Positions 3,439 to 38,177 of a stretch of 64,000 bases of DNA are shown here, in pieces. How positions within the stretch are numbered: position 1 is the stretch's first letter; each line of letters begins with the position of its first letter. Position numbers and translations under genes: made by a program. The notes below the pieces were generated by a model. The model made no database searches and had not been told where the DNA came from. It was given only the letters and a program-made list of their open reading frames with translations. Location of the stretch: the NCBI GenBank assembly GCA_013626165.1, contig NDHX01000006.1:2060-66059 (forward strand), given 5' to 3'. Origin of the DNA: Candidatus Velesiimonas alkalicola (lineage in GTDB: Bacteria > Omnitrophota > Gorgyraeia > Velesiimonadales > Velesiimonadaceae).

Positions 3439-3484
3439 ATTTCCCCCTCTTTTCTCTTGCTTGTGAGCCGATTACTTGTTATCT

Positions 3485-5076: not shown

Positions 5077-5152
5077 TGGAGCGGGTGATGGGATTTGAAC
5101 CCACGACTTCCACCTTGGCAAGGTGGCGCTCTACCGGCTAAGCTACACCCGC
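5077..5152 (-). tRNA. tRNA-Gly (anticodon GCC), CCA encoded
   Basis: The reverse complement GCGGGTGTAGCTTAGCCGGTAGAGCGCCACCTTGCCAAGGTGGAAGTCGTGGGTTCAAATCCCATCACCCGCTCCA folds as a cloverleaf. Confidence 0.9.
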
Positions 5153-5177
5153 AGAAAAGTACAGAAACTACCCCAAG

Positions 5178-5260
5178 TGCGAGGGGCGGGAGTTGAACCC
5201 GCAATCGCAAAGCGAACTAGCTCCTAGGGCTAGCGCGTATGCCAGTTCCGCCACCCTCGC
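5178..5260 (-). tRNA. tRNA-Leu (anticodon TAG), long variable arm
   Basis: The reverse complement GCGAGGGTGGCGGAACTGGCATACGCGCTAGCCCTAGGAGCTAG... has a type II tRNA-Leu architecture with a T-arm GCGGGTTCAACTCCCGC. Confidence 0.85.
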
Positions 5261-5288
5261 TCAAAGCGGAATTTTGGCTCACACATAA

Positions 5289-5364
5289 TGGTACGCCCTG
5301 ATGGAATTGAACCATCAACCAACGGATTAAGAGTCCGCTGCTCTACCGATTGAGCTAAGGGCGC
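5289..5364 (-). tRNA. tRNA-Lys (anticodon CTT), CCA encoded
   Basis: The reverse complement GCGCCCTTAGCTCAATCGGTAGAGCAGCGGACTCTTAATCCGTTGGTTGATGGTTCAATTCCATCAGGGCGTACCA folds as a cloverleaf. Confidence 0.85.
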
Positions 5365-5446: not shown

Positions 5447-5746
5447 TTATCTGGGCAGGACAGGACCCGGTGGAACCCCCACATTAAGAGAGTCGCATTC
5501 TGGACACTTCTGTATCATAAGGCCTGGTCCTATCTCCATCGCCACAGGGTCATCAATGGGTTTAATTGCATAAATATAATCGCAATCAAAACACTTCATT
5601 GCTCTGTTAACTGTCATTTTCCTACAGACAGAGCATCTCATGGGGAATTCTTGCGCACCAGAAATTTTCTTAACTGACAAACTTGCTGGTCCACAAGGCT
5701 CACACACAAGGTTAGCCTCGTAATAATACTTTTTAGGAATAACCAT
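5447..5746 (-). CDS. Small cysteine-rich zinc-ribbon protein (four CxxC pairs)
   Basis: 99 aa with CEPC, CSVC, CFDC and CPEC motifs. It has no recognisable enzymatic domain. Confidence 0.5.
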   Translation of the reverse strand: MVIPKKYYYEANLVCEPCGPASLSVKKISGAQEFPMRCSVCRKMTVNRAMKCFDCDYIYAIKPIDDPVAMEIGPGLMIQKCPECDSLNVGVPPGPVLPR

Positions 5747-6189
5747 ACTAATGATTATCCACAGGCAGATAATGATAACTTCTACCTATTGGAAGAGTGC
5801 ATTTCACAATCTACCAAACATAAACACATGTGATAATACTTTTCAGGAAAAAATCTTACTGATGATTATCACCAGGCAGATAATGATAATACCTACCAAT
5901 ACTGCTGCTACCAGTTTATTTTTTTTCCACTCTGCTGCCATATACCCTCCTTGTTTTTTCCTCTTTTACCCACTTAGAAGCGAATATTTTATAGTTTACC
6001 AAACATAAACATAAAAGTCAATATTTTTGGATTTGCGAGGGCTCAGGCCTGAAGTAATCCTGTCGTTGCGAGGGCTCAAGCCCGAAGCAGTCTCATCTTT
6101 ACTGTGATTGCCACGTTCTTTTCAGTTGCTCGCAATGACTAACAAAAAAACGTGCCTGACTTTAATAATAAGCCAAGACAGGGCTCTGT

Positions 6190-9100
6190 CTATTTCTTAA
6201 ACTTAACGGAGACAACTTTTGAAATTCCATGTTCTGCCATTGTAACACCATATATAACATCTGCAATTTCTATGGTTTTTTTATTATGTGTAATTATCAG
6301 AAACTGTGAGTCTCTGACAAAGTCTTTTAAAAGTTTTATAAATCTTCCGATATTGCTTTCATCAAGGGGGGCATCTATTTCATCTAATATACAAAACGGA
6401 CTGGGCTTTACCTTGAATATGGCAAATAAAAGAGAAACTGCTGTAAGAGCTTTTTCACCTCCTGAAAGAAGTGCAATGCTTTGAAGTTTTTTACCCGGCG
6501 GCCTTGCAACAATTTCAATACCACTTATAAGGGAATTTGCAGGGTCTAAAAGAAAAATATCAGCCTCGCCTCCACCAAACAATTGTCCGAAATAGGTTTT
6601 GAAATGTTCTCTGACTTTTTCAAATGTTTGTGTGAACATCTCTTTTGCGGTTTTATCTATTTTTTCTATGGTCTTTAAAAGTGAGTCTTTTGATTGTACA
6701 AGGTCATCATGCTGTTGGGTTAAAAAATCAAATCTTTCTTTCAGTTCCCTGTTCTCCTCTATGGCACCCATATGGACCTGACCCATCTGTGCAATCCGCT
6801 CTTTTGATTGACCTATCTGAGTTGCTATCTGGTCCCAATGTTCAAGAGTATCTCTTCCTGTTAAATCAATCTCAATGTGATATGCTCCTTCTATGTGCAT
6901 TTTTATTGTTTCTATATTCTTGTCTATCTGGATAATTTCTATTTCAACATCTCTTTCTTGATTTTTTAAATCTTCTATCAGATTTCTTATATTTTGTAGC
7001 ATATTGCTATTTTCTTCAAAAGATTGTCCTGCTTTGTTCTTACTGTCTTCTTTTTCAGAAAGGATTTTCAAAAAATCATTTTCTTTTTGCCTGAATATCC
7101 AAAGTTCCTGTTCTAACTGAAAGTTATTATTTCTTATATCTTCAATTCTTGTTTTATTTTGCTCAATCTCTGCGGTTTTATCCTGTAAAGAATGATTTTC
7201 TGTTTCAAGGGATTTTTGCAAGACATGCACCGTTTCAAAAAAATGTTTTTCCTGATTTTTAAGGTTTGCCAGATGCCCTTCAATTTTAGTTTTATGAATA
7301 GCAATTTCCTGTTTTGAAAGATTTATCTGTTGTATGGATTTTTCGGCATCTAAAAGTTGATTTTCTGCAGTTTTTAGCTCAGACTCTATTTTTGATATAT
7401 CCGAATTAAGGATGTTGTTTTTGGTTTTTATCTGTTCAGCTTCTTCCTGTGTCTGAACTATATCAGTTTCTATGATTTTTTGCTCCTGCGTTATTTTTTC
7501 CATATTCTGTTTTGCAATGTTAAGGACTGTAAGCAGATGTGCCAGTCGTTCGGACTTTTGTCTTATCATTTCCGTAAAACCTGAAATCTCTTTGTTAAGA
7601 CTGTTTTCTTTATCTGTCAAAAAAAAGATCTGACTTTTCATTTCTGAGATACTATGTTCAATCTGTGATGTTTCTTTTTCTGCCTGACTTAATCTTGCCT
7701 GCCTTCCTATAACGCTTATATCTGAGATGTTTAAAGAACCGGTTGTAATGGTATATCTTGTTATGATATCTCCGTCTAATGTAACAAGTTTTATCATATC
7801 AGGACAGTCTTTTAAAATATTCTTTGCCTCTTCTATATTTTTTACACACCATACATCTTTTAATATCTCTTTAAACATTTTCTCCATCTCTTCCGGGACC
7901 TGTATACAAGAGGTGAACCTGCAGGCTCCCTGAATCTGCATATTATCATTTATAAGGGACGGGTCAATGCTGTCAGAGAGAATAAATGTTGCTTTTCCTA
8001 GGTCTTTTTGTTTTAATATCTGTGCTGCAATAAGTGCGGTATCTATATCTTTACAGATAAGAAATTTTGCAATTTCTTCAAGTTGTGATTCAACTGCTTT
8101 CTCAAATCCTTCCCTGGCCTGCATATACTGTGCAAGTGTCCCTTTAATATTTGATAACCTGCCGGCATCAACCTCGTCAAGTACTGCCTTTACACCGCTT
8201 TTGTATCCCTGATGATCTTTCTCAAGGGTTTTAAGCATTTCTGTTTTAGAAATACTTGCAGAATGCCTTTTTTCATATTCTAAAAGTTTTTCTGCCTTGT
8301 TTTTTTTCTCGGTTGATATAATCTGTATTTGCGAAAGAATACCATCCCTGCCCACTTGAGCCTTCTGTATTTTTATGTTTATTTTTTCAATATCGGCACC
8401 GAGTGTATCTATGTTTTGTAAAACAGTATCTTTTTGTTTCTGTATCTGCTCTGTATCTGCTCTGTATCTTTGAAGCCTTATACCGAGTTCATTAAGTTTG
8501 GCATTTATATTTAGGTATTCGTTTCTTAGGTTTGCTCTTTTTGTCTGGAGTTCAAATATTTTTTCTTTTAACTGTTTTAAGACAGATTGCTTTGCTTCAA
8601 ACTGGTCTATAATTGTTTTTTCTTTATCTGCCACAGAAGAAATCTCTGTCTCTATGTTTGCTATATCTAATTTTGTCTGCTCCTTTTTTTTTATAATTTC
8701 TGAAATCTGAGATTCAAGTGCATCTTTTCTTACCCCCAAAGATTCTATATCAGATAAAATCTTCAGGTTTGAAGAATTTAATTTATCAGACCATTCTTTG
8801 TTTGTATTTATCTTTTCCTGTGCTGAAAGTATAGAACCTTGAAGAGCTATCTGTTCAGCCTTTGTATTGGCAAGTTTTTGTTCTAACTGAAAAAATTCAT
8901 TTTTTAATTTTTCTTCATCTTCCTGTGATTTTTTAAGCTCATCAGATTTGGCTTTTATCTGTGCTAATATCTGCTCTGCTTTATCTTTAACACAGGCCCT
9001 CTGTGCCATAAGAAGAAGTCCTTTGTGCGTTGCTAATTTAACTTCCATAGAACGAAGAGTTTCAAATTCTTCTTTGTATCTTTGCGCCTTGACAACCTGT

Positions 9101-11122: not shown

Positions 11123-12313
11123 TTAACCAATTCCCCTGATAAATTTTTCAAGTCTGTTTAATCCTTCAATAATATTTTCCATAGATGTTGCATATGAAAA
11201 CCTCAAATAATTATCATCGCCAAATACACAGCCTGGTACCACAGCAATATGGGCATAACTTAAAAGTAGGTCTGCCATTTGTAAAGAGTTTTCAATTGCA
11301 CGACCATTGAATTTTTGCCCTAAAATATCTGATATATTAACCCAACAATAAAATGCACCCTGCGGCATCACAGCAGATAATCCATTTATAGAATTTATCC
11401 TGCTAATAATATAATCCCGTCTTTTCTTAAACTCCATAACCATTTTACTTAAATCGCCTTGATCTCCTGTTAGAGCCTCCACTGCTGCTTTCTGCGAAAT
11501 TGAGACAGGATTTGAGGTAGAATGGTCTTGCAGATTAGACATTGCTTGAATAATCTGTTTTGGTCCTGCTGTCCAACCTATACGCCAGCCCGTCATAGCA
11601 TATGCCTTTGAAAGACCGTTCACAACCAATGTGCGTTCTTTAATTTCTTTACCAAGACAAGCAATACTGGTATGCTTTGTGTCATAGACAATCTTTTCAT
11701 AGATTTCATCCGAAATACAGTAAATACCGGATTGGATAATAATCTTGCTTATCTGTTCCATCTCACTTTTGGTATAAACCATACCTGTGGGATTAGAAGG
11801 AGAATTAAGTATAAAAAGCTTTGTTTTTGGAGTAATGGCATATTCAAGTTGATGGGGTGTAATTTTAAAATTATGTCTTTGTGTCGTTTTAAGAACAATT
11901 TCTTTTGCCCCGACTATTTGAATCATTTCCGGATAGCTTACCCAGTAAGGGCTTGGTAAGATTATCTCACTTTTTTCATCGCAAAGAGCAAAAATTATAT
12001 TAAATATAGAATGTTTTGCACCGCAGGATACAATGATCTCATCAGGTTGATATTCTAATTGATTGTCAGACTTAAACTTTTGACAGATTGCATCCTTTAG
12101 CTCTTTTATACCTGAACTTGCAGTGTACTTGGTAAAACCCTTATCAATAGCAGTTTTTGCCGCTTTTTTAATATTTATTGGCGTATCAAAGTCCGGTTCG
12201 CCTGTACCAAAATCAATAACATCAATACCCTCTGCTTTCATTTTCTTGGCTCTGTCAGTGATATTTAAGGTAGGCGAAGGATTGATATGACTTACCCTTT
12301 TTGAAATCAACAT
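11123..12313 (-). CDS. Aspartate/aromatic aminotransferase (class I PLP aminotransferase)
   Basis: 396 aa with the PLP-lysine region SKAYAMTGWRIGW typical of the AspC family. Confidence 0.8.
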   Translation of the reverse strand: MLISKRVSHINPSPTLNITDRAKKMKAEGIDVIDFGTGEPDFDTPINIKKAAKTAIDKGFTKYTASSGIKELKDAICQKFKSDNQLEYQPDEIIVSCGAKHSIFNIIFALCDEKSEIILPSPYWVSYPEMIQIVGAKEIVLKTTQRHNFKITPHQLEYAITPKTKLFILNSPSNPTGMVYTKSEMEQISKIIIQSGIYCISDEIYEKIVYDTKHTSIACLGKEIKERTLVVNGLSKAYAMTGWRIGWTAGPKQIIQAMSNLQDHSTSNPVSISQKAAVEALTGDQGDLSKMVMEFKKRRDYIISRINSINGLSAVMPQGAFYCWVNISDILGQKFNGRAIENSLQMADLLLSYAHIAVVPGCVFGDDNYLRFSYATSMENIIEGLNRLEKFIRGIG

Positions 12314-28733: not shown

Positions 28734-30095
28734 CTAAAGACAATACCCAACCAGTGTGCAATTGTGAACATCTTTGACAAGAACATTGAAAATCTGCCCC
28801 GGTATAAACCTCGTTGGATATGGCAAGCTATCCAGTGGGGTAAACCTATCAACAGGGAAAACAATATTTCTGTTCTTTCTTGTATGTCCTTTTGCCCATA
28901 TGTTAGCGTCTATAGATTTTTTGACAATTTTTTCAACAAGGACTTCCTGTTCTGTGCCTATCAATCTTCTTAAATTATATTTTGCTATAGAAGAAACAAG
29001 GTCAAGTGCTACCCTGTGCCTTGACTTTTTATCGTTTATACTTACATCATCGGAAAGATTATAGGCAGATGTTCCTTTCCTCGTAGAATATTTATACACA
29101 AATGCACCGTCAAACCTTATTTGCTTTAAAACAGAAATCGTATCTTTGAAATCTGTATCTTTTTCCGATGGAAAGCCTACAATTATATCCGTTGTTATAG
29201 AGCACTGCGGAATTATAGACTTACATTTTTCTATCAGTTTAAGATAATATTCCCTTGTATATCCTCTGTTCATAAGCGTTAATATCCTGTCTGAACCGGA
29301 CTGTAAGGGAAGATGGATATGTTCGCACACATTGGGAAGTTCAGCAATTGTTTTAAGAAGTTTTTCATCCACATCCCTTGGATGGCTTGTCAAAAACCTT
29401 ATCCTTTTTATATCAGTTTCTTTATTTATGATTTTCAAAAGTTCAGTGAAATCACATTCTTGATATTTATATGCAGACACATTCTGTCCTAAGAGTGTAA
29501 CCTCCTTTACTCCTTTATTTGTCAAATCTTTTATTTCCCGGACAATCTCTTGCACCGGACGGTTTTTTAATTTTCCTCTTGCATAAGGAACAACACAATA
29601 TGAACAAAAATTTTCGCACCCCTTTGCAATATTTACAAATGCCGATACTTTGCTGTTTACAGATATACTTGTATTATCAGGATAATTCCTTCCAACCTCA
29701 AGTATATTTTTCTCTCCGTTTATTACTCTCTGAATAATATTGCCCATTAAACCTGTATCATCAGGTCCACATGCGAAAGAAAGTCCGGGTATTTTTTCAA
29801 AAACTTCCTCCCTGAGCAACTGCACAGAACATCCTACAAGCCCAACAACCGCCCCTGGTTTCTTTGATATTACATCTTTTGCATACTCTATCGCCCTGTT
29901 TTGAGCATGCTCTCTTACGGAACAGGTATTAAATAGGACAACATCAGCATCCTCAATACCATCAGACACAACAAATCCATCTGTCAGAAGACAGGACAAA
30001 ATCATCTGACTATCCCTTTTATTCATCTGACATCCGAAGGTACGGATAAAGATTTTTTTTGGCATATTTTTATAAGTTTTTGATTCTTTTGACAT
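28734..30095 (-). CDS. miaB: tRNA-i6A37 methylthiotransferase
   Basis: 453 aa with an N-terminal MTTase domain (TFGCQMN), a radical-SAM CxxxCxxC (CENFCSYC) and a TRAM domain. Confidence 0.9.
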   Translation of the reverse strand: MSKESKTYKNMPKKIFIRTFGCQMNKRDSQMILSCLLTDGFVVSDGIEDADVVLFNTCSVREHAQNRAIEYAKDVISKKPGAVVGLVGCSVQLLREEVFEKIPGLSFACGPDDTGLMGNIIQRVINGEKNILEVGRNYPDNTSISVNSKVSAFVNIAKGCENFCSYCVVPYARGKLKNRPVQEIVREIKDLTNKGVKEVTLLGQNVSAYKYQECDFTELLKIINKETDIKRIRFLTSHPRDVDEKLLKTIAELPNVCEHIHLPLQSGSDRILTLMNRGYTREYYLKLIEKCKSIIPQCSITTDIIVGFPSEKDTDFKDTISVLKQIRFDGAFVYKYSTRKGTSAYNLSDDVSINDKKSRHRVALDLVSSIAKYNLRRLIGTEQEVLVEKIVKKSIDANIWAKGHTRKNRNIVFPVDRFTPLDSLPYPTRFIPGQIFNVLVKDVHNCTLVGYCL

Positions 30096-30219
30096 TGTAG
30101 TTTCTTTTCTGTTTCTGAAAACAAAAAATTAAAGTGGGCAAAAAGAAAAAAAGAAATTTTTTTGTGGTAACGCCCCGCCGATGGCGGGGGCGATCTTGAT
30201 GTTTTTAAAAAGCAGCCCG
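30053..30219. repeat. 167-bp direct repeat A (terminator hairpin + miaB promoter + first 14 codons of miaB)
   Basis: Identical, with one substitution and a poly-T length difference, to 37856-38021. It contains the GC hairpin cgccccgccgatggcgggggcg followed by a T-run. Confidence 0.9.
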
Positions 30220-31712
30220 GCGAGCTGTTTCTTATCAGCAAAGTCTATTTTTTCTTTGCTGTCATCGTACCCATCAAGAAAGTCTTTTACTCTGTTAATA
30301 TAGCCCTCTGAGTGTTCTCGTTCAATTTCTCTAAGTTCATATCCTGCAAAGAGTTTTTTCAAGTTTTTTTCTTCGTTTCTGAGGCTTGAATTTTTCTCGC
30401 GATAGACATCTTCGCCAAGCAAATTTTCCAGATAAGCGTCTGTAAGTCTTGACTGTTTTTCTTGGTTAATTTTCAGCTTATCTTTGAACAAACCCACGTC
30501 ATTGCGAGGTGTTGACATCCCTGATGTCAACACCGAAGCAATCTCAAGACCAGTCCCTGTCGTCCATCGGCTCTGTTTTAGGCGTTCGTTTTGGACCAAC
30601 TGAGCAACTATTTTTGTGGCCTCCGGCTCTATATCCTCTGCCTTCACTGCCCTGTTGGTACAATTTATATGGCTTGAATAAGGACCTGAACACCTATACT
30701 AACGTTTCTTCCTATTCAAGCGATGGTTTGATATGGACGATACACCTGTATACCTATGATTGCACTTAGCACAAGCGATAAGACCTGTCAAAAGATACTC
30801 TTGACTTTTTGTTCTCGGTCGCCATGTTCGTGTCTTGTTCGCCAGCAGCTTCTGAACTTCTACAAAATCTTCTCCATCTATGATAGGCTTATGCCTTCCC
30901 TGTGCAACAAGAACTTTAGAAGGATCATTTCTGATATATTTGTAATGTTTTTTGGTTTTCTGATTCTTGTCATAGTGTTTTTTATTCCAAACAATCTTAC
31001 CGGTGTAAATCTGATTCTTAAGTATGTCACAAACAAACTTGTTGTAAAATTGTTTGCCTGTCCTTGTCTTGTATCCTTTCCTATCAAGGTATGCTGCTAT
31101 GTCGTGTGTGCTCTTGCCGGAAATATACATCGTATATATCAGCTTAACGATATTCGTTTCTCTTTCTTCAACCTCTAATAGCTTCTTGGTTTTGTTATAA
31201 GCATAGCCGAATGGCGCAAATCGTGCGCCTTGCCAGTTGCCTTGTTGAACGCCTTTCATCATGCCAGGGAATACCCTTTCAGCAATCCGGTTTCTTTCAA
31301 ACTCGGCAAACGAGCCAAGCTGCTGAAACATCAGTGTCCCTGCTGATGTCGTTGTGTCAAAAGGTTCTGTTGCAGATTTGAAGCCAACGCCATAGGAAGA
31401 TAGCTCATCCACCAGCATAAGCAAGTCTTTAAGGTTGCGACTAAAGCGATCGATCTTATGGACCAACACAAGCTCAAACCTCTTTGCCTTCGCATCAGCA
31501 AGCAACTGTTGTAAAGCCGGGCGACGCGTGGAATATGCACTTATGCCATCATCGCAATACACCTTGAAAACTTCATATCCTTCACGATTAGCAAAGGATT
31601 CAAGGTATTCTTTTTGTACTTCTAAAGAATAACCTTCTTTGGCTTGGTCTTCAGTAGATACTCGTGTATAAATTGCTATTCTTAGCTTTTCATTCATTTT
31701 TAATATCCACAA
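30129..31712 (-). pseudogene. Large serine recombinase (integrase), split by a frameshift into 337-aa and 172-aa ORFs
   Basis: The N-terminal resolvase catalytic domain (IYTRVSTEDQ, Ser nucleophile) is followed by a recombinase domain and a zinc ribbon (CAKCNHRY). The coiled-coil C-terminal part continues in another frame from 30647. The last ~30 codons run into repeat A. Confidence 0.75.
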
Positions 31713-31733
31713 TATTATTAGCGCACAATAGAC

Positions 31734-32318
31734 TTATTTTAATCCCTTTATTAAACTTTCTATCGTATCAACAAAATCTATCGCATTTTTATAAACCTTT
31801 TCAGCATCTTTTTGCGCAATAACTGCATCTGCCTTATACTGTGCTGTATTTCTTTTGGATTTCGTGGCCCACATTCTATTAACATATTTCTCATCAAGCT
31901 TTTTTGCAGATTTTATCTTCTCGATGTCCTCTGATTCTATGGTCTTTTCTTTGAAAACAAAATGATATTCTAAACCCTCAATAAGGCTTTCATGGCTTTG
32001 GGCTTTTATCCCTATTGCGGCCAACGCAGCTGTTGCCGCATGAAACATTGCATAATATCCACAGCTTATAGTCCAATCATATCCAATATAATCGGCACTT
32101 ACTTTTAGTCTTTTCTTGCTCTCGTTATCTTCCGAAACCTCCATAAGTAAAGAACCTGTCTCGATATTATGCCTTGCTTTATCAACATGATATTTTACCA
32201 GCGCTGTAATTGTGGGGTCTACTTTTAAATCGCCATTATCAAAATAACCTTTTACTTTTATTTTTAGCATTTCTTTCTTCAAATCACTCATTTTATTACC
32301 TCCAATATTAGTTCCCAA
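31734..32318 (-). CDS. HEPN-domain protein (partner of the upstream nucleotidyltransferase)
   Basis: 194 aa with an all-helical HEPN-like pattern and a KRNTAQY segment. It overlaps the upstream MNT gene. Confidence 0.6.
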   Translation of the reverse strand: MGTNIGGNKMSDLKKEMLKIKVKGYFDNGDLKVDPTITALVKYHVDKARHNIETGSLLMEVSEDNESKKRLKVSADYIGYDWTISCGYYAMFHAATAALAAIGIKAQSHESLIEGLEYHFVFKEKTIESEDIEKIKSAKKLDEKYVNRMWATKSKRNTAQYKADAVIAQKDAEKVYKNAIDFVDTIESLIKGLK

Positions 32319-32911
32319 AATTTCTCTGCACCAAACAATATTACTTTATTTTTTAAGATCTCCTTGGCTACATTATGCTCCTTATCTTTTAACATTGTTA
32401 ATAAATTTGTTGGCTCAGAAACCAAAGGGTTTATTTCGACACCAAAACCTTTTGACAAGGCGACACATTCCATATCAATAATTTCATCATATTTCTTTTT
32501 TGAAGGGATAAGGATAAAAAGATCGATATCGCTTTTTTTAAAGTCGGTCCCTTTAGCCAAAGATCCAAATAGAACAACAGAAAGTAAGTTAAAATCTGTT
32601 TTCTTAGGCAATACCGAAAGAAGCTTTTCAACTACGAAGAAAATTTTATCCCTCTTCTTTAAAAAATCTTCGGCTATCTGATTCGATATTTTAACAAAAC
32701 TCGTTTTGACTTCTGGATTCTTGTAGTTAGGCCTGCAATACTTGCGGTTCGAACGCTGGTCGACAATTATAATATCCTTCTCTTTTAATTCTTCGACCTG
32801 CCTGTATACATAACTATAAGAAATATTTGTTTTCGTTGCTAACTCATTTATTGTAAACTGGGCATATACATCATCATAGAATAGCCTTATTATTTTATCT
32901 TTCATGTTCAA
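32288..32911 (-). CDS. Winged-HTH + minimal nucleotidyltransferase (MNT) protein
   Basis: 207 aa with an N-terminal wHTH and an NTase motif LFGSLAKG...DIDLFIL (GS...DxD). Confidence 0.7.
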   Translation of the reverse strand: MNMKDKIIRLFYDDVYAQFTINELATKTNISYSYVYRQVEELKEKDIIIVDQRSNRKYCRPNYKNPEVKTSFVKISNQIAEDFLKKRDKIFFVVEKLLSVLPKKTDFNLLSVVLFGSLAKGTDFKKSDIDLFILIPSKKKYDEIIDMECVALSKGFGVEINPLVSEPTNLLTMLKDKEHNVAKEILKNKVILFGAEKFWELILEVIK

Positions 32912-33042
32912 CCTCCATTATCACTTGTGGTGATAATATTATCACCAACGCTGATATATGTCAAGCTAAATTTTGAAGAGTGAAATTTTGAAGAGGGCTG
33001 GGAAATATGCGCACGCCCGTTTTGGGTGGGGAATTTCCTTTC

Positions 33043-33503
33043 CGGCTGCTTTTTAGCAGCGGCTAGGGAGCTGATGCAGTCCCGCCGCAGGCGGGGCAAA
33101 AACATCAAAATCGCCCACAAAAAGCTCTTTTCTTTTGAATTTTTTGCCCCCTTTAATTTTTTATTTTTTGAGGAAAAACAAAAATGCCAAACCAAGAACC
33201 TAAAAAGAGTTACAAATTTTTTGCCTCCAAAGTCTTTATCCGGACTTTCGGCTGGCCTTATGCTTCGGCTTTACAATATACTTTATTTGTTCTTTAAGAT
33301 TCAATGAACTTTAGGCACCGCCTGCTTAGGCAGGCTCCCGGTGTGGTGTTTGCACCGTTCAGCTTCGCTGTCGCTCAGCTTCACTCCACGCTCGCTTGGA
33401 CGCTCGCTAAAGTGGTAATGCAATAGTCCGATTCGGCTTTGTGTTGGACGCATTTTGGGTGGCGGCAAAATGCGCCCAACACCCTGCGTCCTCAACCTCG
33501 CAA
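33043..33503. repeat. Inverted copy (B) of the ~450-bp unit that is also present at 37584-38021
   Basis: It holds a diverged reverse complement of the 167-bp miaB-promoter repeat (33043-33200), then cttcggctttacaatatactttatttgttctttaagattcaatgaac, then a GC-rich ~190-bp segment (33315-33503) nearly identical to the reverse complement of 37584-37772. Confidence 0.85.
33315..33503 (+). ncRNA. Candidate structured ncRNA, copy 1 (unknown class), GC-rich with nested stems
   Basis: ~60% GC in a ~35% GC context. Multiple perfect stems (CACCG-CCUGC-UUAG-GCAGG-..-CGGUG; GCAUUUUG/CAAAAUGC inside GUUGG/CCAAC). It is duplicated exactly, and the only ORF is a duplicated composition artefact. Confidence 0.4.
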
Positions 33504-33594
33504 AAACTAAATCCGTTTTCCTTTTTTATTGCGGCCGCCGCCTGAACCGCCGTTTAGAAGAATTTTTAAAGTTTAACATATATGGGACCCTCCC

Positions 33595-34059
33595 TCAAAA
33601 TTTAAATTGAGCCGGAGGAGAATCTTTTTTGATAATCTCTTTAATTAAATCAACAAACTTTTCAGCCATATTCAAGGCATTGCTGGCTTCTGTCTTTGAA
33701 ATAGATATATCAACATCGTATGTAAATATGTTGCGCTTCTTCCTCATCTCGTCAAAACGAGCTACGATGATTTCAAATTCTTTTCCTAAGAAATGCGACA
33801 TAAATTCCACAACGGTTTTGTGCTGATAGCCGTCTGTAGGACGAAAACCTTTTAGGAGCATAAATGCTCTTCCCGCATGCAACATTGCTAAATATGCGAC
33901 TGTATAAGCAATACCTTCATCGATATCCAAATTAGCTTTTGATGTTTTTAAATCTTTAAATGAACGCGAAATAAGCTTTTCGACTGCACGGTAATTGCAT
34001 TTCTGTCTCTTTAATAGCCCTTTATTTAGGTATTCTTCAATAAATTTTTCAAAAGTCAT
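33595..34059 (-). CDS. HEPN-domain protein
   Basis: 154 aa with the R-x4-6-H-like motif region RKKRNIFTYD and a helical bundle. It overlaps the MNT gene. Confidence 0.65.
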   Translation of the reverse strand: MTFEKFIEEYLNKGLLKRQKCNYRAVEKLISRSFKDLKTSKANLDIDEGIAYTVAYLAMLHAGRAFMLLKGFRPTDGYQHKTVVEFMSHFLGKEFEIIVARFDEMRKKRNIFTYDVDISISKTEASNALNMAEKFVDLIKEIIKKDSPPAQFKF

Positions 34060-34621
34060 TTTTATCTCCTACTAAAAATATTTTCGAATCCTCTAAAAGG
34101 TCTGATATGAAGGGATCCTTTTCTCTCTTCTTCTTTATAAAATCTCTCTTCGAATATAAGCTATAATTTATTTCTCTTTTTAGAACTTTTTCTAATTTTC
34201 CTATTCCTGTTACTAATTTATCTTCGTCTACTTTGCCTATTATAAACAAATCAATGTCGCTTTTAGCGTTCTCTTCATTTTTGGCGAACGAACCATAAAT
34301 AAAAGCTGCTTCAACACCTTTTATCTTTTCAAGGATATCTTTTAACAACCCTTTTATGCCGATTGTTTTAAACACCATGCTTTTCATCTCTTCAAATAGC
34401 GGATAAGACTTGTTGAGAAAGAAATAAACGAGATTCCCTTTTCTGGATGAGGCAAAAATGCCAGCTTCTTCCAGATGAAGCAATTCCTTGCGAATCATAC
34501 TTACAGGGATATCGAGAATACGCTCAAGCTCTCTCAGGTAATATTCGCTCTGTGGATTTGTGTAAAATAGCCTAAACAGCGCCTTTCGTGTTTTAGATTT
34601 GAAAACGTTTGTTATATCCAT
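34049..34621 (-). CDS. HTH + minimal nucleotidyltransferase (MNT) protein
   Basis: 190 aa with an NTase motif YGSFAKNE...DIDLFII and an N-terminal HTH. Confidence 0.7.
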   Translation of the reverse strand: MDITNVFKSKTRKALFRLFYTNPQSEYYLRELERILDIPVSMIRKELLHLEEAGIFASSRKGNLVYFFLNKSYPLFEEMKSMVFKTIGIKGLLKDILEKIKGVEAAFIYGSFAKNEENAKSDIDLFIIGKVDEDKLVTGIGKLEKVLKREINYSLYSKRDFIKKKREKDPFISDLLEDSKIFLVGDKNDF

Positions 34622-34737
34622 CTCTTGTAATCCTTTCGTATTACAATTGTAATACTTTTATATAACAATGTCAAACTAAAATTTCACCGTTTTCCTCATT
34701 TATGCTGGTCAAGCAGCATGTATTATAGAAATGCGAT

Positions 34738-36030
34738 TTATATATTTAAAACCTCTCCATCGGTTAGAATCCTGACATTTTTGAAAAGATTAGGATAACT
34801 GTTCGGGTCAAAAGTATGAATCGGAATTAGTATTCTTGGCTTCATTGCTGATGTAAAGGCTTTTAGATCCTCTGGCTTGGCATGCCCGCTTGTATGAATA
34901 TATTCCAGAGTCAGTCTCTTGCTTTTACAAAACGCCCTAAATCCTATGGAAAGATATCCATCCCACATAGAATAAGCTATTGTGGCACCTGCTACATCAA
35001 TGATCTTTTTTAGTATCAAAGGGAAAACAGAATTATCGCGTGCGAGCATAAGAATCCTATTTTTATTTTTGCTAATTTCAGGCATTTCAATCTTTCTTTT
35101 GTTGTAAGCATAGAGCAGGTTTTTATGGCCTGCCTGAGCAAGCGCCTTCGCGTGTGCATCGAGAAATTTAACTCTCACATTTTTCCAATTAAACTGAGGA
35201 ATTTTCCCAGAGACTTGCTTGAGTTTATCCAGAATAAAGGCGGTATAAATATCAATAACAAAGGTTGAATCTGTTTTGAGGCACGCCCTATACGCCGACA
35301 CTATCCGGTCAATATTTTGCGATGAGGCAAATAGAAAGGTTATATTTCTTCTCTCTGATATAATTTCTTCTAGCCGCCTTTCAACGTCTTCCTCAGTTTT
35401 ATACTGGGCATCCTCTCTGCCAAGAGCCGAACCCTCCATAAGCAGACAGTCTATATTTTGAGGTGGTCTCTTGACTATTTGATTAAATAATATTGCTTTT
35501 CTCCCATGGGCCCTGAAATCTCCTGAATAAAATAGCCTCTTGCCTTCTGTCTCAATTAGGAATGCAAGCGCATCAAAGGCAGAATGGTCAACCAGAAAAG
35601 GCGTAACATTAAAATCGCCTATGTTCAACTGCTTTTTATTACTAATCACCTTTGTATTTAGCTTGCCAACTTTGGTGGGAACAAAAATATTTGAAACTTC
35701 AATAAGAAGCTCGGCGCCCTTACTTAAATAAATCGGTATCTCTGGATTTACGTACTGAAGGAAGCCGTAATGATCAAGGTGGGAATGAGAAATCAAGATT
35801 CCATCAATGCCTTTTTTCTCATCCTTAAAAAGCCCTTTTATATCGGGAAGGATCTTCTGCTCTTTAAGCTCTTGAAGGGACTTACCTTTAAGCTGTTTTA
35901 CTTCGAACGGCTGATGGTCACGAGAAACCAAAGGTATGCCAAAATCGACTAGGATTCTATTATTGACTGTCTTTAACTCAACACAACTTCCGCCAATCTC
36001 ATGAGTACCACGATGGATGATTATTTGCAT
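34738..36030 (-). CDS. Metallo-beta-lactamase fold nuclease of the beta-CASP type (RNase J/CPSF/SNM1-like)
   Basis: 430 aa with HxHxDH (SHSHLDHYG), downstream His/Asp motifs (VDHSAF, YSGDFR), and C-terminal TSGHA/IPIHT beta-CASP-like motifs. Confidence 0.7.
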   Translation of the reverse strand: MQIIIHRGTHEIGGSCVELKTVNNRILVDFGIPLVSRDHQPFEVKQLKGKSLQELKEQKILPDIKGLFKDEKKGIDGILISHSHLDHYGFLQYVNPEIPIYLSKGAELLIEVSNIFVPTKVGKLNTKVISNKKQLNIGDFNVTPFLVDHSAFDALAFLIETEGKRLFYSGDFRAHGRKAILFNQIVKRPPQNIDCLLMEGSALGREDAQYKTEEDVERRLEEIISERRNITFLFASSQNIDRIVSAYRACLKTDSTFVIDIYTAFILDKLKQVSGKIPQFNWKNVRVKFLDAHAKALAQAGHKNLLYAYNKRKIEMPEISKNKNRILMLARDNSVFPLILKKIIDVAGATIAYSMWDGYLSIGFRAFCKSKRLTLEYIHTSGHAKPEDLKAFTSAMKPRILIPIHTFDPNSYPNLFKNVRILTDGEVLNI

Positions 36031-36896
36031 TGCTTAATCAAATTCTCCAATTTTATCGACGACACACTACCTATTGGATAATAAGTAATGGCTCTCTCGA
36101 TTTTTTCTTTAAATAAATCCTTAAACCTTCCTTTCAACTGATCGCGGTCAAATCCAAATATTATCAAAGGAACTGTAGGGCATATCTTCTCCGGTTCAGG
36201 TAAGGATATCTGGAATAAATCATTAACTATCTTCGTATAATTGTTATATGCCGCGATGATTTGGCCCTCTTTATCTTTGATTTGGTCAGTATATCTTCTT
36301 ATCTGTTCCACTACTTTTATGTTCTCAACCTTTTCTGCCCATATCTCGCTGTTTGAAAAGTGTTTTACCTCACAGAAGATTAATCTATTCTTTTCTTTTT
36401 CAAATAAGAGTATATCGATTCTATCCTGCAACCTATCTTCTTCTATCGCCTCAAATGAAACTTCGATATCCAAAACCACAACGCTCGAATTTTTCGTTTT
36501 TGAACTCGCGAACGAATGATTTTCATATATTTTAGAAACTCCTTGAGCTTCAACTCCTGAATATAAAGAACAATTTTCTTTTATCCTTTCATAGCCGTCG
36601 GTAAAACTTTGTATTTGTTTCAGATTCCCAAGCATTAGCTCGGTAATATACGCTTCGGGATATTCTTTATATGCCGAAGCATACTTAACGTGCGTTTTAA
36701 ATCCTTCTTTGTCATATGAGAATAATCTGCCACCATAATGATAAAAATCTATTACTTCATTTCGTATTGCCGGAAAAACTTCGCCATTATCCTTAATATC
36801 CGGCAACAATTGTTTATATAAAGGCTCCTCTATCAACTTTTTCTTCAATTCTTCATTCATTGTCCGCTTAAACTTCCACTTCTCTTCCTTGCTCAT
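36021..36896 (-). CDS. Hypothetical protein with a possible PD-(D/E)xK nuclease core
   Basis: 291 aa. The central VVLDIEVSF...DRIDILLFEKEKNRLIFCEVKH resembles a D...D/E-x-K restriction-endonuclease-fold motif. It overlaps the MBL gene by 10 nt and the TPR gene by 4 nt, so the three are translationally coupled. Confidence 0.35.
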   Translation of the reverse strand: MSKEEKWKFKRTMNEELKKKLIEEPLYKQLLPDIKDNGEVFPAIRNEVIDFYHYGGRLFSYDKEGFKTHVKYASAYKEYPEAYITELMLGNLKQIQSFTDGYERIKENCSLYSGVEAQGVSKIYENHSFASSKTKNSSVVVLDIEVSFEAIEEDRLQDRIDILLFEKEKNRLIFCEVKHFSNSEIWAEKVENIKVVEQIRRYTDQIKDKEGQIIAAYNNYTKIVNDLFQISLPEPEKICPTVPLIIFGFDRDQLKGRFKDLFKEKIERAITYYPIGSVSSIKLENLIKQCK

Positions 36897-37410
36897 GTTA
36901 ACCTCTCTGGTTTAATTAGCCTCTTCATAATGTCATCCACGCATCGCAGGGCATCTTTATCATTTGGACAAAGCTCAAGTCCTTTATCAAAAGAAAGTAA
37001 TGCGTCCCAATATCTGCCTTTCTTTTTTAACGCCATGCCCCTGTTAAACCATATGCAGACATTGCGTTGCGCTATTTTAAGCGCTTCCTCAAAACACTCC
37101 ATTGATTCTTGTTCTCTACTCATCCTTAATAAACACGCCCCTTTATTTTCTAGGGCATCAATATTTTTTGGATTAATCTCCAGGGCTTTATTATAGCACT
37201 TTAACTCTTCAGTATTCTTATCAAGAAGAAAAAAGCATATCCCTTACGAAACCACGCCACGTCATCTGATGGATTTAGTTCTATGGCGCGATCATAACAA
37301 GCAACGGCATCCTCGTACATTTCTGCCTTACAGTAAATCTCTGCTGATTCATGCCAGTTAACAGCTTCTTTCATTATTTCTCCAAAAATAAAAAATCCTC
37401 CGCCGGTCAT
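36893..37410 (-). pseudogene. TPR-repeat protein, apparently split into two ORFs (37410-37201 and 37123-36893)
   Basis: Both fragments show TPR consensus (W-LG-Y-A-F-A-P). A ~75-bp gap with a frame change lies between them. Confidence 0.5.
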
Positions 37411-37583
37411 AACTTTACCAACGAAGGTTTTACTTTTTTAACGTCCGGGATTTCCCCCCTTCAAACACGGAACAAATATCTAATTTTAACTTTATTATAT
37501 CAAGTTTATTTACTTTGTCAACGATTTTCAGGACCATTTGACTTACCCAGCAGACACACGAGAATACAGTGTAAAATACTACA

Positions 37584-37772
37584 TTGCGAGGTTGAGGACG
37601 CAGGGTGTTGGGCGCATTTTGCCGCCACCCAAAATGCGTCCAACACAAAGCCGAATCGGACTATTGCATTACCACTTTAGCGAGCGTCCAAGCGAGCGTG
37701 GAGTGAAGCTGAGCGACAGCGAAGCTGAACGGTGCAAACACCACACCGGGAGCCTGCCTAAGCAGGCGGTGC
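37584..37772 (-). ncRNA. Candidate structured ncRNA, copy 2 (reverse complement of copy 1)
   Basis: Near-identical to the reverse complement of 33315-33503. It is positioned ~90 bp downstream (minus sense) of the duplicated miaB promoter copy. Confidence 0.4.
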
Positions 37773-37855
37773 CTAAAGTTCATTGAATCTTAAAGAACAA
37801 ATAAAGTATATTGTAAAGCCGAAGCATAAGGCCATCCGAAAGTTCGAATGTAGAC

Positions 37856-38021
37856 TTTTTTTGGCATATTTTTATAAGTTTTTGATTCTTTTGACATTGT
37901 AGTTTCTTTTCTGTTTCTGAAAACAAAAAATTAAAGGGGGCAAAAAGAAAAAAAGAAATTTTTTTGTGGTAACGCCCCGCCGATGGCGGGGGCGATCTTG
38001 ATGTTTTTAAAAAGCAGCCCG
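37856..38021. repeat. 167-bp direct repeat C (copy of the miaB terminator/promoter/first 14 codons)
   Basis: Matches 30053-30219, including atgtcaaaagaatcaaaaacttataaaaatatgccaaaaaaa (MSKESKTYKNMPKK). Confidence 0.9.
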
Positions 38022-38177
38022 CACATCTCTTTCTTGGTAGCAAAATCTATTTTTTCCTAAACGTGCGGGTTTAATTAATCCTTTTCTCTCCCAGATCCCA
38101 AGTGTAGCTGGGCAAACTTTTAAAGACTTGGAGACTATACCGATAGTATAAACTGGTTCTTTATATCCATATTCCAT
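38007..38177 (-). CDS. Small MerR-family HTH protein (56 aa), candidate excisionase/recombination directionality factor
   Basis: MEYGYKEPVYTIGIVSKSLKVCPATLGIWERKGLIKPARLGKNRFCYQERDVRAAF has a MerR/Xis-type HTH. It is below the 60-aa cutoff of the ORF track, and its last codons lie inside repeat C. Confidence 0.45.
   Translation of the reverse strand: MEYGYKEPVYTIGIVSKSLKVCPATLGIWERKGLIKPARLGKNRFCYQERDVRAAF

Follow-up and report, generated by a model that had tools for sequence, protein, structure and literature searches.

The skin element, with its recombinase SpoIVCA, inserts site-specifically into conserved coding sequence (sigK), leaving hybrid attL/attR-type junctions and no target duplication. 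This accords with the established mechanism of large serine recombinases (LSRs), in which exchange occurs at a 2-bp core and no target is duplicated. The same traits have been described for SPbeta, inserted in spsM by SprA, and for A118 in comK (PMC5499854, PMC3556126). All three recombinases combine Resolvase and Recombinase domains with a zinc ribbon, as does the enzyme considered here. These elements split their target gene, which is restored only by excision, whereas the present element appears to bring a replacement 5' end and to leave miaB intact; its family further differs in having an attP-type site within the recombinase's own 3' coding region and, in most copies, an inverted second site. 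Insertion at the 5' end of a housekeeping gene with a replacement start is a resemblance to the SXT/R391 ICEs, which reportedly supply prfC with a new promoter and N-terminal codons, the gene still being functional. Those ICEs differ, however, in their tyrosine integrase, short identical core and large conjugative body, and they have neither a dual-coding overlap with the integrase gene nor an inverted partner.

Other systems share single features with the family. In the integration-dependent immunity of mycobacteriophages, attP is said to lie inside the repressor gene, with the recombination state setting the C-terminus of the protein. There, the integrase is usually a tyrosine enzyme, whereas here it is the C-terminus of the recombinase that changes, and the other frame encodes the start of the target. 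The serine invertases Hin, Gin, Cin, Pin and PinQ also lie within inverted sites, swap gene 3' ends by inversion and have been linked to defence genes (PMC12529663). However, Hin, Gin, Cin and Pin are small serine recombinases that use 26-bp sites under Fis/enhancer control, while the present enzymes are of integrase type (550-583 aa) with repeats of 146-210 nt, and the gene with the alternating 3' end is the recombinase itself. Like integrons, the family has a fixed recombinase beside a docking site that could collect promoter-proximal cassettes, and several loci look stacked; unlike integrons, it has no tyrosine IntI, attC-type folded sites or common cassette promoter, and its cassettes would carry their own miaB start.

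The window, i.e., the whole 64,000-nucleotide stretch analysed, contains a 7.8-kb island upstream of miaB (Table 1) that is probably the fossil of a miaB-specific LSR element, lying atop the stump of an earlier one. A sequence-only reading had recognised a repeat-bounded accessory island at this place, and that observation is confirmed: the repeat is real and longer than claimed, and the gene content is mostly as listed, with Resolvase and Recombinase domains, two HTH-nucleotidyltransferase/HEPN pairs, a beta-CASP/MBL protein and a TPR gene found. Contrary to what had been stated, the island is not AT-rich compared with its flanks (GC 0.31-0.48 inside vs 0.34-0.43 outside), and the label 'PD-(D/E)xK-like' given to the second operon protein found no match in Pfam, PADLOC, NCBIfam, PHROGs or PDB.

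Table 1. Features of the miaB island, in window coordinates.
Feature	Coordinates	Strand	Details and basis
miaB, intact, 453 aa	28734..30095	-	TIGR01574 MiaB 394.5 bits (cut-off 355.3); ORF list; junction alignment
Large serine recombinase pseudogene	30023..31697	-	Pfam Resolvase 3.6e-41, Recombinase 2.1e-22
Arm A, recombinase 3' tail from ...EKIDFADKKQLAGLLFKNIKIA	30031..30290	-	attR-like site, arm + miaB
Cargo pair 2	31734..32911	-	HTH-nucleotidyltransferase 32288-32911 + HEPN 31734-32318 (Pfam); PADLOC PDC-M05A 1.4e-17, PDC-M05B 1.9e-09; promoter-like site 32964-32936
Site B, left half	33040..33254	+	Inner flank 33040-33089 (GGCTGCTTTTTAGCAGCGGCTAGGGAGCTGATGCAG + hairpin) and arm B 33090-33254
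P' at site B	33255..33545	+	17 codons in recombinase frame encode GLMLRLYNILYLFFKIQ and stop; then conserved non-coding block
Cargo pair 1	33595..34621	-	HTH-nucleotidyltransferase 34049-34621 + HEPN 33595-34059 (Pfam); PADLOC PDC-M05A 2.5e-50, PDC-M05B 8.1e-18; promoter-like site 34674-34646
Cargo operon	34738..37521	-	Consensus promoter 37521-37494, TTGACA-16-TATAAT (promoter scan); TPR gene split into two ORFs (37201-37410, 36893-37123); 291-aa protein of no assigned family (36021-36896); beta-CASP/RNase J-like metallo-hydrolase (34738-36030)
P' at site C	37584..37832	-	249/249 identical to 33255-33503, inverted; truncated exactly at CCTCGCAA
Arm C, stump of earlier recombinase gene	37833..38092	-	Reads EKIDFATKKEMCGLLFKNIKIAPAIGGA...; miaB-type start ATG 37897
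Truncated host HspR/MerR-like gene, 56 aa	38007..38177	-	Pfam MerR_1 1.3e-08; NCBIfam HspR 1.9e-06 to 1.2e-08

The direct repeat comprises 30031-30254 and 37833-38056 (224 nt, 93%, spacing 7802). Within the narrower limits first proposed (30053-30219 and 37856-38021), 165/167 positions are identical; six mismatches fall in the 23 nt adjoining the junction, and weaker similarity extends to ~30290/38092, for a total of ~260 nt. An ATG followed by MSKESKTYKNMPKK is present in both copies, which had been interpreted as a duplication of the miaB promoter and first 14 codons. Both copies are instead element-derived recombinase 3' tails, and the supposed terminator/promoter stretch is conserved recombinase coding sequence; nor is the repeat a target-gene duplication, since serine recombinases make none. 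Read in the frame of ORF 30023-30241, arm A gives the consensus recombinase C-terminus of the homologs, and in another frame it overlaps the miaB ATG (30095) and codons 1-21. These codons come from the arm, which ends after TTCGGATG, between 30031 and 30030; host sequence begins at codon 22 (CQMN...). A three-way alignment of copies A, B and C gives a single common junction, and all three end where >100 other loci do. On these alignments, the recombination point would be the end of the arm at miaB codons 21-22, TTCGGnTG/yCArATGAA (FGCQMN; slash, junction).

The recombinase gene belongs with homologs that are up to 90% identical, and PHROGs labels it an integrase (1e-105). It had been called frameshifted; the gene is indeed broken, but its two ORFs share one frame and are separated by an in-frame TAG (30699-30701) in the zinc ribbon (NRKKR*YRCSG). 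TAG serves as an ordinary stop here, since it terminates 13 of the window's 55 long ORFs. The tail also carries a 2-nt deletion relative to L004/L006, at ~30164 in the A-run, and the ancestral stop is TGA 30023-30025, within miaB codons 23-24.

Arm C carries the same 2-nt deletion and is joined to P' in an attL-like site, in direct orientation relative to A. Over 38056-37991 it matches the 3' ends of the L006 and L008 recombinases at 98.5% identity. Copy C is what remains of an earlier recombinase gene, and it is fused to a host HspR-like gene, itself truncated, at which element-derived DNA reaches its outer limit. In the fused gene, roughly codons 1-42 are host and the rest is read from the stump; L094 and L081 have full-length HspR-like homologs in their host flanks. 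This ORF is the MerR-like gene once proposed as a directionality factor, which it is not. The family's own conserved Xis-like HTH gene, which 105 loci carry, does not occur in the window. With the recombinase dead (TAG and 2-nt deletion) and this gene missing, the arrangement of the island is frozen. None of three other assemblies of the species contradicts it: one runs from B to miaB, and two begin within the repeat. Together with the dead recombinase, this makes the suggestion that the element is now fixed a reasonable one.

The two-copy layout first described lacked a third, inverted copy at 33090-33503, a family-typical partner that alters the likely mode of action. Arm B, which faces the opposite way to A and C, is a recombinase tail of another subfamily (KNIKIAHKKLFSFEFFAPFNFLFFEEKQKCQ...) and contains a miaB-type start of its own (ATG 33185, MPNQEPKKSYKFFASKVFIRTFG); it shares 95-99% identity with the arms of L024, L027, L020 and L016 and 68% with arm A. 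The inner flank of this inverted repeat is also typical of the family. The adjoining non-coding block of P' ends with CCTCGCAA at 33503, while homology to the P' of other loci reaches ~33545. P' peptides are conserved within each class, and a stop always follows after 16-28 codons, a coding-like pattern. P' is borne by the element and lengthens the recombinase by a conserved extension of 17-28 aa. Its consensus fold has 14 compensatory pairs in 7 sequences, and no Rfam family matched. The window holds arm + miaB at A, arm + P' in direct orientation at C and arm + P' inverted at B. The presence of B suggests that many family copies may flip rather than excise.

A one-genome-per-species collection yielded 146 relatives, and metagenome contigs at least 446. 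Relatives are found in Omnitrophota, Elusimicrobiota, Margulisiibacteriota/WOR-1, Saganbacteria and Auribacterota, where they occupy the same codon of miaB. The family, with an LSR inserting at the miaB start, is widespread, with apparently no prior description. Of 143 non-redundant related loci, 83 have the recombinase tail running into miaB, and 41 have it running into other sequence, chiefly P' classes. Where recombinase pairs are 85-95% identical, the adjoining miaB genes have a median identity of 48% (n=87). Likewise, the window recombinase is 82-88% identical to those of L001-L008, and its miaB merely 37-46%. These comparisons show the family to be horizontally mobile. In L029/L138, L105 and L136, a native short miaB start (MK(K)[VI]YI[RK]TFG) joined to P' lies in direct orientation upstream of the recombinase; such loci are classical attL/attR arrangements with a displaced native start. 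L007 and L093 have native starts that are unoccupied.

In this family, the last ~60 codons of the recombinase gene (the arm) also encode, in the other frame, a replacement translation start and miaB codons 1-21. With the arm joined to the miaB body, the recombinase ends two codons on and miaB is intact; with the arm joined to P', the recombinase gains its extension. In the mechanism proposed here, arm + P' would serve as the attP-like site and miaB as attB. Integration would place arm + miaB at the recombinase end and the previous miaB start + P' at the far end; as junction anatomy and the relatives suggest, no target would be duplicated and miaB would never be inactivated, and the site regenerated at miaB could accept the next element. 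In the window, a 7,802-bp element (37832 down to 30031) lies between C and A, the left half of C being the tail of the older, deleted recombinase gene. The cargo of the element consists of the two MNT/HEPN-type pairs and the beta-CASP operon, all with separate promoters. Where copies are live, the recombinase-plus-cargo segment is probably flipped by recombination across the inverted pair; miaB would then stay intact while the recombinase alternated between short and long forms. Of the loci described below, L084/L085 speak for activity, the inverted arms of relatives, L142 and L088 for the flip, and L003, L093 and L032 for stacking. The earlier proposal of an integrative element at the miaB 5' end is therefore partly supported: an LSR-built island, the target and a replacement 5' end stand, whereas the duplication, the directionality factor and the frameshift do not.

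Some observations count against the fossil-element reading. Homologous recombination anywhere within perfect repeats would yield the same products as site-specific exchange at the arm end. The A and C arms are nearly identical but B is divergent, which calls for an extra gene-conversion or duplication step. In addition, P0107 and P0116 have identical recombinase bodies with different arms, which may point to a further exchange at the inner edge of the arm.

The view of the family as chiefly a resident invertible switch of the Hin/Gin kind, not an integrating element, is a serious competitor, somewhat short of an even chance. Here, the inverted arm pair would be the working unit, a flip would change recombinase isoform and cargo orientation, and direct copies like C would be by-products. 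Of the 143 loci, 69 carry an inverted arm upstream of the recombinase; most of these arms are 98-100% identical over 146-210 nt and end exactly at the junction. Where a locus has the inverted pair alone, no displaced native miaB start lies within 2.5 kb; this commonest architecture fits a switch and counts against the fossil-element reading. A curated complete WOR-1 genome contains a minimal module, P'-arm-HTH-recombinase-arm-miaB, adjoined on its P' side by host genes. Two orientations would also fit L084 and L085, which match at 100.000% identity for 1,923 nt as far as TTCGGCTG and then continue into miaB in one and P' in the other; L142, with miaB inverted upstream of HTH-recombinase; and L088, where a long-form recombinase and P' are followed by 10 kb of host pst/pho genes without miaB. 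However, the strong discordance between recombinase and miaB demands transfer between hosts, classical direct attL/attR loci exist, the enzyme is an integrase-type LSR rather than a small invertase, and the inverted arms of the window are just 68% identical. The flipped left junction, with the arm joined to inverted miaB, occurs only in L142, L021 and perhaps L150; given its rarity against the 41 recombinase-P' loci, many P' junctions must come from stacked or other arrangements and not from simple flipping, a point that also counts against the fossil-element reading.

An integron-like docking platform is unlikely, although several loci resemble one. In such a platform, the recombinase and arm-miaB site would be fixed and recombinase-less circles (short miaB start + P') would be captured between recombinase tail and miaB, building defence/toxin-antitoxin arrays. 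For example, L093 and L007 have a recombinase tail with class-3 P', then 1.6 kb of cargo and a short-start miaB; in L003, as in L093, a tail joined to P' is followed by cargo (stacking), as is copy C in the window. P'-type sequence flanks the recombinase on both sides in L003, L052, L089, L126 and L028, and varied cargo of 0.5 to 6.4 kb lies between HTH gene and recombinase. That, however, is where most loci hold their cargo, rather than between recombinase and miaB; the 7.8-kb insert of the window carries its own recombinase, and no free cassette circle was seen.

The original model, in which one integrative element duplicated the miaB promoter and first 14 codons on inserting, with a recombinase at one end and a MerR/Xis-like factor at the other, is now improbable. 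Direct repeats 7,802 bp apart, a recombinase beside miaB and a miaB-specific, mobile family agree with it. Against it stand the LSR mechanism, the recombinase coding sequence in the repeat, the continuation of copy C upstream as a recombinase stump and the host origin of the MerR-like gene, and it ignores inverted site B.

Finally, it is very improbable that the repeats stem from assembly error or from a plain segmental duplication through homologous recombination, unrelated to the recombinase. Mis-joins at repeats are frequent in metagenome assemblies, and A and C are nearly identical with different flanks. However, an independent scaffold (L169, GCA_002581705.1) matches window 33275-25312 at 99.9%, with an N-gap covering the arm; L170 and L171, Logan contigs of other runs, also bear out the window, their first base lying exactly at 30219, the edge of the near-perfect (one-mismatch) repeat; all three copies share their junction with >100 loci, and L032 repeats the three-site layout of the window, its recombinase likewise disrupted.

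The direct repeat proposed by the sequence-only reading is borne out: positions 30031-30254 and 37833-38056 are 93% identical over 224 nt at a spacing of 7,802, and over the shorter interval described at first, copies A and C agree at 165/167 bases. Six mismatches between these copies are bunched in the last 23 nt, and weaker similarity extends to ~30290/38092. A third, inverted copy (B) at 33090-33503 had been overlooked; its distal 249 nt match the reverse complement of 37584-37832 at 249/249 positions. An assembly artefact as the origin of the repeats is ruled out by scaffold L169 of a separate assembly, which equals window positions 33275-25312 at 99.9% with an N-gap over the repeat, and by two Logan contigs that start precisely at 30219. 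Alignment of the three copies reveals one common junction (marked by a slash). In copy A, ...ATCTTTATCCGTACCTTCGGATG/TCAGATGAAT runs into miaB (protein MSKESKTYKNMPKKIFIRTFG/CQMN), and copies C and B join a left part of the same kind to /GCCTTATGCTTCGGCTTTACAATATAC..., an element-borne sequence termed P'. Across the related loci (L numbers), every such left part, or arm, stops at TTCGGnTG/, followed by either miaB or P'. These joins of an arm to miaB or to P' may represent hybrid attL/attR junctions with exchange at a short common core.

The arm is the 3' end of a large serine recombinase (LSR) gene, since the consensus C-terminus of homologous enzymes (...AGLLFKNIKIAPAIGGAxPxKRISFxLFxPFNFLFSETExKxQCQKNQxxxKIxxKKSTS..) is exactly what the supposed promoter part of the repeat encodes in the frame of ORF 30023-30241. 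It overlaps the start codon and first 21 codons of miaB in a different frame, and intact relatives end the recombinase at the TGA within miaB CAG-ATG-AAT. What had been described as a duplicated miaB promoter is DNA encoding the recombinase C-terminus in the frame of that ORF. On this evidence the long repeats are element-borne arms and not duplications of the target. The sole consensus-like promoter match within the arm overlaps the miaB ATG and was discarded.

The window recombinase matches PF00239 (3.6e-41) and PF07508 (2.1e-22) in Pfam as well as a PHROG integrase family (1.3e-105); intact homologs additionally contain PF13408, completing the LSR domain set. Homologs number in the hundreds, are 550-583 aa long and at most 90% identical, and come mostly from Omnitrophota MAGs. 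In the window, the zinc ribbon is interrupted by TAG. The enzyme had been called frameshifted; instead, its two ORFs share one frame and are split by this single codon (between NRKKR and YRCSG), at a position occupied by W or Y in homologs. Recoding of TAG was rejected, as it terminates 13/55 long ORFs in the window and is an ordinary stop. The recombinase tail is also 2 nt shorter than in loci L004 and L006, at an A-run near 30164, and copy C has the same deletion. An Xis-like HTH gene, a candidate for the cognate recombination directionality factor, is conserved at 105 loci of the family, lying 0-38 nt upstream of the recombinase in 52/105; elsewhere, cargo of 0.5-6.4 kb comes between the two. 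This gene is missing from the window, and the MerR-like ORF once proposed as the directionality factor is a truncated HspR-like host gene. The window copy is a decayed example of a miaB-linked LSR family.

All genes of the island region lie on the minus strand (Table). The window miaB clears the curated equivalog cut-off for MiaB, the tRNA i6A37 methylthiotransferase, and a miaB-type gene was found downstream in related loci by tblastn. The two HTH-nucleotidyltransferase/HEPN pairs, candidate MNT/HEPN-type toxin-antitoxin or defence pairs, are recognized by adjacency and by both PADLOC profiles, PDC-M05A and PDC-M05B (2.5e-50 and 8.1e-18 for pair 1; 1.4e-17 and 1.9e-09 for pair 2), which define a PADLOC candidate system only (PDC families); they also match Pfam NTP_transf_2/Polbeta and HEPN. 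A 430-aa cargo protein is an RNase J-like beta-CASP hydrolase with scores well under the family cut-offs. The neighboring 291-aa protein has no match in Pfam, PADLOC, NCBIfam, PHROGs or PDB, leaving its former PD-(D/E)xK-like label without support. In a promoter scan, each cargo block has its own consensus-like promoter, the best being TTGACA-16-TATAAT at 37521-37494. Among the cargo carried by relatives are pairs of the MNT/HepT, RES-type and HigBA-like kinds, one diversity-generating retroelement and an IS110. The TPR protein is represented by two short ORFs, 36893-37123 and 37201-37410, 77 nt apart, which are probably a single decayed gene and fit an ageing island. Elsewhere in the window, ARAGORN finds tRNAs at 5077-5364 only: three genes (Gly-GCC, Leu-TAG, Lys-CTT; minus strand) that are not the attachment site and are unrelated to the island.

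Table. Sites and genes of the island region in the window, with the positions of two non-coding elements in related loci
Feature	Position	Strand	Remarks
Site A	30031-30290	-	Arm + miaB
Site C	37584-38092	-	Arm + P', direct orientation
Site B	33040-33545	+	Inverted arm + P'
Phosphoglucomutase-like gene		-	First in the region's listed order, before miaB
miaB	28734-30095	-	TIGR01574, 394.5 bits (cut-off 355.3)
Serine recombinase	30699-31712, 30129-30647	-	After miaB; two ORFs
Two HTH-nucleotidyltransferase/HEPN pairs		-	After the recombinase
Beta-CASP protein, 291-aa protein of no matched family, TPR fragments		-	After the HEPN pairs
MerR-like ORF, 56 aa		-	Distal end of the island
NIL, MoeB/ThiF and MoaD/ThiS-like host genes		-	Beyond the MerR-like ORF
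Non-coding P' block, window	33312-33503, 37584-37775
Non-coding P' block, related loci	L006 60-302; L085 2336-2590; L003 7255-7447; L075 1565-1758; L013 2775-2972; L010 6470-6672
75-nt motif, related loci	L010 2721-2800, 6274-6347; L013 ~2692; L017 ~2957; L018 ~7190; L032 ~7469; L085 ~2652		Not in the window

A scan of one-genome-per-species contigs yielded 146 relatives, and a metagenome scan at least 446. They fall in Omnitrophota, Elusimicrobiota, Margulisiibacteriota/WOR-1, Saganbacteria and Auribacterota; among them are L053, from a complete, curated WOR-1 genome, and L036, from that of Ca. Velamenicoccus archaeovorus, also complete. A phage origin was rejected, with only 2 distant relatives in 2.9 million viral contigs. 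Among the 143 non-redundant loci containing the recombinase tail, the tail joins the miaB string GGnTGyCArATGAA in 83, other sequence in 41 and a contig end in 19. Among 120 listed homologous proteins, ~65 stop two residues beyond the junction and ~35 have an extension. The target string encodes FGCQMN, a motif that in MiaB-family enzymes holds the first cysteine ligand of the N-terminal iron-sulfur cluster. Conservation of this cluster-ligand motif would explain the broad host range, and an attachment site on such highly conserved codons of a near-universal gene would explain the reach of the family over five phyla. Owing to the dual-coding arm, the target miaB is never inactivated.

Several comparisons bear on mobility. 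In 87 locus pairs whose recombinases share 85-95% identity, the neighboring MiaB bodies are 48% identical at the median and 33% at the minimum; the window recombinase is 82-88% identical to those of L001-L008, and the window MiaB only 37-46%. This discordance indicates that the element moves between hosts. In four loci (L029/L138, L105 and L136), a native short miaB start (MKVYIKTFG, MKKIYIRTFG, MKKVYIRTFG) joined to P' lies upstream in direct orientation, with recombinase-arm-miaB at the other end, which on the evidence of these joins is the textbook integrated form. An unoccupied native start is found in L007 and L093 (GTGAAAGTCTTTTTGAAAACCTATGGGTG/TCAGATGAAC). Occupied and empty sites in unrelated hosts are thereby represented across the family; among the assemblies of the window's own species, no empty-site variant was found. 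Loci L084 and L085, from different assemblies, are 100.000% identical over 1,923 nt, a stretch that takes in the upstream gene, the full recombinase and its arm, and diverge exactly after TTCGGCTG: the continuation is miaB in one locus and P' in the other. The protein bodies of database recombinases P0005 and P0007 show the same pattern. Identity up to such divergent joins implies a recent rearrangement at or within the arm.

Two further observations concern the same region. The recombinases P0107 and P0116 have 100% identical bodies and wholly different C-terminal arms, one being long and joined to P' and the other short and joined to miaB; this contrast suggests that exchange may also occur at the inner arm boundary (LLF/KNIKIA), beside the outer junction. 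In the WOR-1 contigs L035 (1989 and 3033) and L140 (2086-2173 and 3130-3217), miaB carries a ~1-kb insertion ~20 nt past the junction, flanked by an 88-nt direct repeat that is 97.7% identical; it appears to be an insertion of another type that used this hotspot.

P'-type joins form classes, in each of which the recombinase frame is open for just 16-28 codons and encodes a conserved peptide. These peptides are DPWFVLYKLAKPFFFTAFQVELAAM in Omnitrophota class 1, GLMLRLYNTLYSFFKIQ in class 2 (window version GLMLRLYNILYLFFKIQ), GRWPxYSKSMxSLAEALxE in class 3 and DLWIRFRSTLYKFLKTLYA in Elusimicrobiota, each followed by a stop, and DPWSRIYHKLKTVLEFI... in Margulisiibacteriota. Their residues vary and the hydrophobic pattern is retained, which is read as selection on the protein. 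The recombinase thus comes in two forms, a short one where the tail runs into miaB and a long one where it runs into P'. The possibility of a protein-coding remnant in P' was rejected, because indels between loci do not amount to whole codons and the recombinase frame is open over its initial 16-28 codons only. Also rejected was a free-standing "tail protein" read from the inverted arm and P': as read by eye, the window and L003 have their upstream ATG in frame, and L006, L008 and L012 have it out of frame.

Past the stop, P' is a conserved non-coding block, which in the window ends exactly at CCTCGCAA, where the identity between copies B and C ends too. The consensus fold of seven copies contains several hairpins, 14 compensatory pairs and variable hairpin insertions; the single-sequence fold is not significant (z = -1.2). 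Rfam searches of the window and nine loci at gathering and E-value thresholds returned no match to P'. As a lead only, the block may be an undescribed structured RNA or protein-binding region tied to the recombination site. Separately, a 75-nt motif (GGGTGAAGGCAAGCGCACAAAG...GGACGACTGCGATTGCCGAG), also with no Rfam match, has an inner hairpin that varies in sequence and keeps its pairing. It forms the outer limit of homology between loci, ~270-500 nt past the junction. L010 has two divergent copies on either side of a 3.5-kb insert that carries HigB/HigA-like genes, as though insertion had used the motif as a secondary site.

An inverted second arm lies upstream of the recombinase in 69/143 loci, usually 98-100% identical to the first over 146-210 nt. 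Its outer end is the exact junction, its inner end is sharp at the LLF/KNIKIA codons, and its visible flank is P' in 40 loci. The minimal module is P', inverted arm, HTH gene, recombinase, arm and miaB; in the complete WOR-1 genome it spans ~2.7 kb, with host genes immediately past P'. Recombination between the inverted sites would flip the recombinase-plus-cargo segment. As both arms bear the miaB start, miaB would be intact in either orientation, and the flip would change the recombinase tail alone, from short to long. Such a widespread inverted partner suggests natural LSR-driven inversion of defence cargo.

Several arrangements support real flipping, as far as contig structure can indicate it. 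In addition to the L084/L085 pair, L142 has an inverted miaB upstream of the HTH-recombinase unit, joined via the arm; L088 has a long-form recombinase followed by P' and 10 kb of host pst/pho genes, with no miaB; and in L150 the inverted arm runs into 26 nt of miaB-like sequence. Homologous recombination between the perfect repeats would give the same products as site-specific exchange. Both complete orientations within one population were not found among the loci compared, nor were near-identical partners of L142 in opposite orientation among those examined. Since a flipped left junction is rare (2-3 loci) and P'-joined tails are common, many of the latter are read as stacked arrangements. 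Examples of stacking are L003, L052, L089, L126 and L028, where P' occurs on both sides of the recombinase, and L093, where 1.6 kb separates the recombinase tail from native miaB. A second P' copy to the left of inverted-repeat loci was found only in L126, L052, L003, L158 and element 2 of L010. No displaced native miaB start was found within 2.5 kb of inverted-pair loci, the commonest architecture, among which homology stops ~500 nt past the junction, at the 75-nt structured motif.

Two unusual layouts were also observed. In L021, two different miaB genes (5645-6954 and 11471-11955) point towards each other from either side of the recombinase segment, both with an arm attached. They share ~86% DNA identity in the first 123 nt of their bodies and may be two host paralogs or reflect a chimeric contig of two strains in opposite orientations. 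In L093 (11640-13275) and L007 (~3312-4929), the recombinase tail and class-3 P' (...TTCGGAATGGCCGATGG...) are followed by 1.6 kb with a secreted-looking protein and then by miaB with a short native-type start. This insert looks like a recombinase-less cassette captured between recombinase and miaB.

The window combines three such sites. Upstream of the near-perfect repeat, copy C consists of recombinase coding sequence (EKIDFATKKEMCGLLFKNIK...) 98.5% identical to the L006 and L008 recombinases, and at ~38056 it fuses to an HspR-like gene of the MerR family, represented by its first ~42 codons; L094 and L081 have full-length relatives of this gene among their host genes. Site C is accordingly what remains of an older element's recombinase, attached to P', as would follow from integration of a later element at the arm-miaB site of its predecessor. 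The later element would measure 7,802 bp (37832 to 30031), in agreement with the island of the sequence-only reading. Site B has an inner flank typical of the family's inverted repeats and a fuller P' copy than site C. Its arm is of a different subfamily and shares 95-99% identity with those of L024, L027, L020 and L016. The distant Omnitrophota locus L032 shares the three-site layout and a disrupted recombinase, and L126 may be a third case. Several schemes on paper gave no derivation of inverted site B and the 249/249 inverted P' copies by serine-recombinase chemistry alone. Arms A and C are nearly identical and share the 2-nt deletion, which implies that copying or gene conversion took place once the deletion was present. 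A dead recombinase, a missing HTH gene and the lack of conflict with three other assemblies make fixation the best reading of the island. At 38020-38056, the recombinase-derived part of the truncated HspR-like ORF (KNRFCYQERDVRAAF) resembles the MerR wing of HspR (KSRLYSLKDIRRLEY), probably by chance at a microhomology junction.

Parts of this organization are familiar from other systems. Large serine integrases share the enzyme class and apparently the junction logic. SXT at prfC likewise keeps a 5'-targeted gene alive with an element-borne new start, and in mycobacteriophage integration-dependent immunity a site in the coding region also sets the C-terminus of a protein. As in the Hin/Gin/Pin switches, inverted sites surround the recombinase gene, site B of the window being inverted relative to A with arms only 68% identical; unlike the small invertases of ~190 aa with a C-terminal HTH and ~26-bp sites, the family has enzymes of 550-583 aa and repeats of 146-210 nt. 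The elements are not integrons, which use a tyrosine IntI and attI/attC: the sole recombinase is a serine enzyme and the sites are arm/P'/miaB junctions. Full-text literature searches and recent Omnitrophota genome preprints yielded no mention of miaB-linked recombinases. In the literature searched, no description was found of the combination of an LSR acting on a site inside the dual-coding 3' part of its gene, strict miaB FGCQMN targeting, two conserved isoforms and a usual inverted partner site.

LSRs are a major route of gene flow and valued genome-engineering tools. With the site inside the enzyme's own frame, the state of the DNA sets the isoform, which would amount to an intrinsic feedback that the literature searched does not report for serine integrases. 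A tentative overall reading, less likely than not, is that of a self-rewriting LSR platform in which each inversion, integration or cassette capture would toggle the short form and a form with a conserved amphipathic C-terminal extension, always regenerating intact miaB from the dual-coding arm. In at least five phyla it would offer defence and toxin-antitoxin cargo a docking site of an invertible or integron-like type, with the ~200-450 nt of conserved, structured-looking non-coding P' as a functional RNA or protein-binding partner.

The overlap also affects annotation. Because the true start of miaB overlaps the recombinase tail, public gene calls place it at the Met of CQMN in L001 (2631), L002 (2021) and P0121. 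The window miaB is called from M24, which is why its full-length protein gave no exact-sequence match in databases, and MiaB N-termini are systematically shortened in annotations of these phyla. The family further explains why many contigs of these uncultivated phyla break just 5' of miaB.
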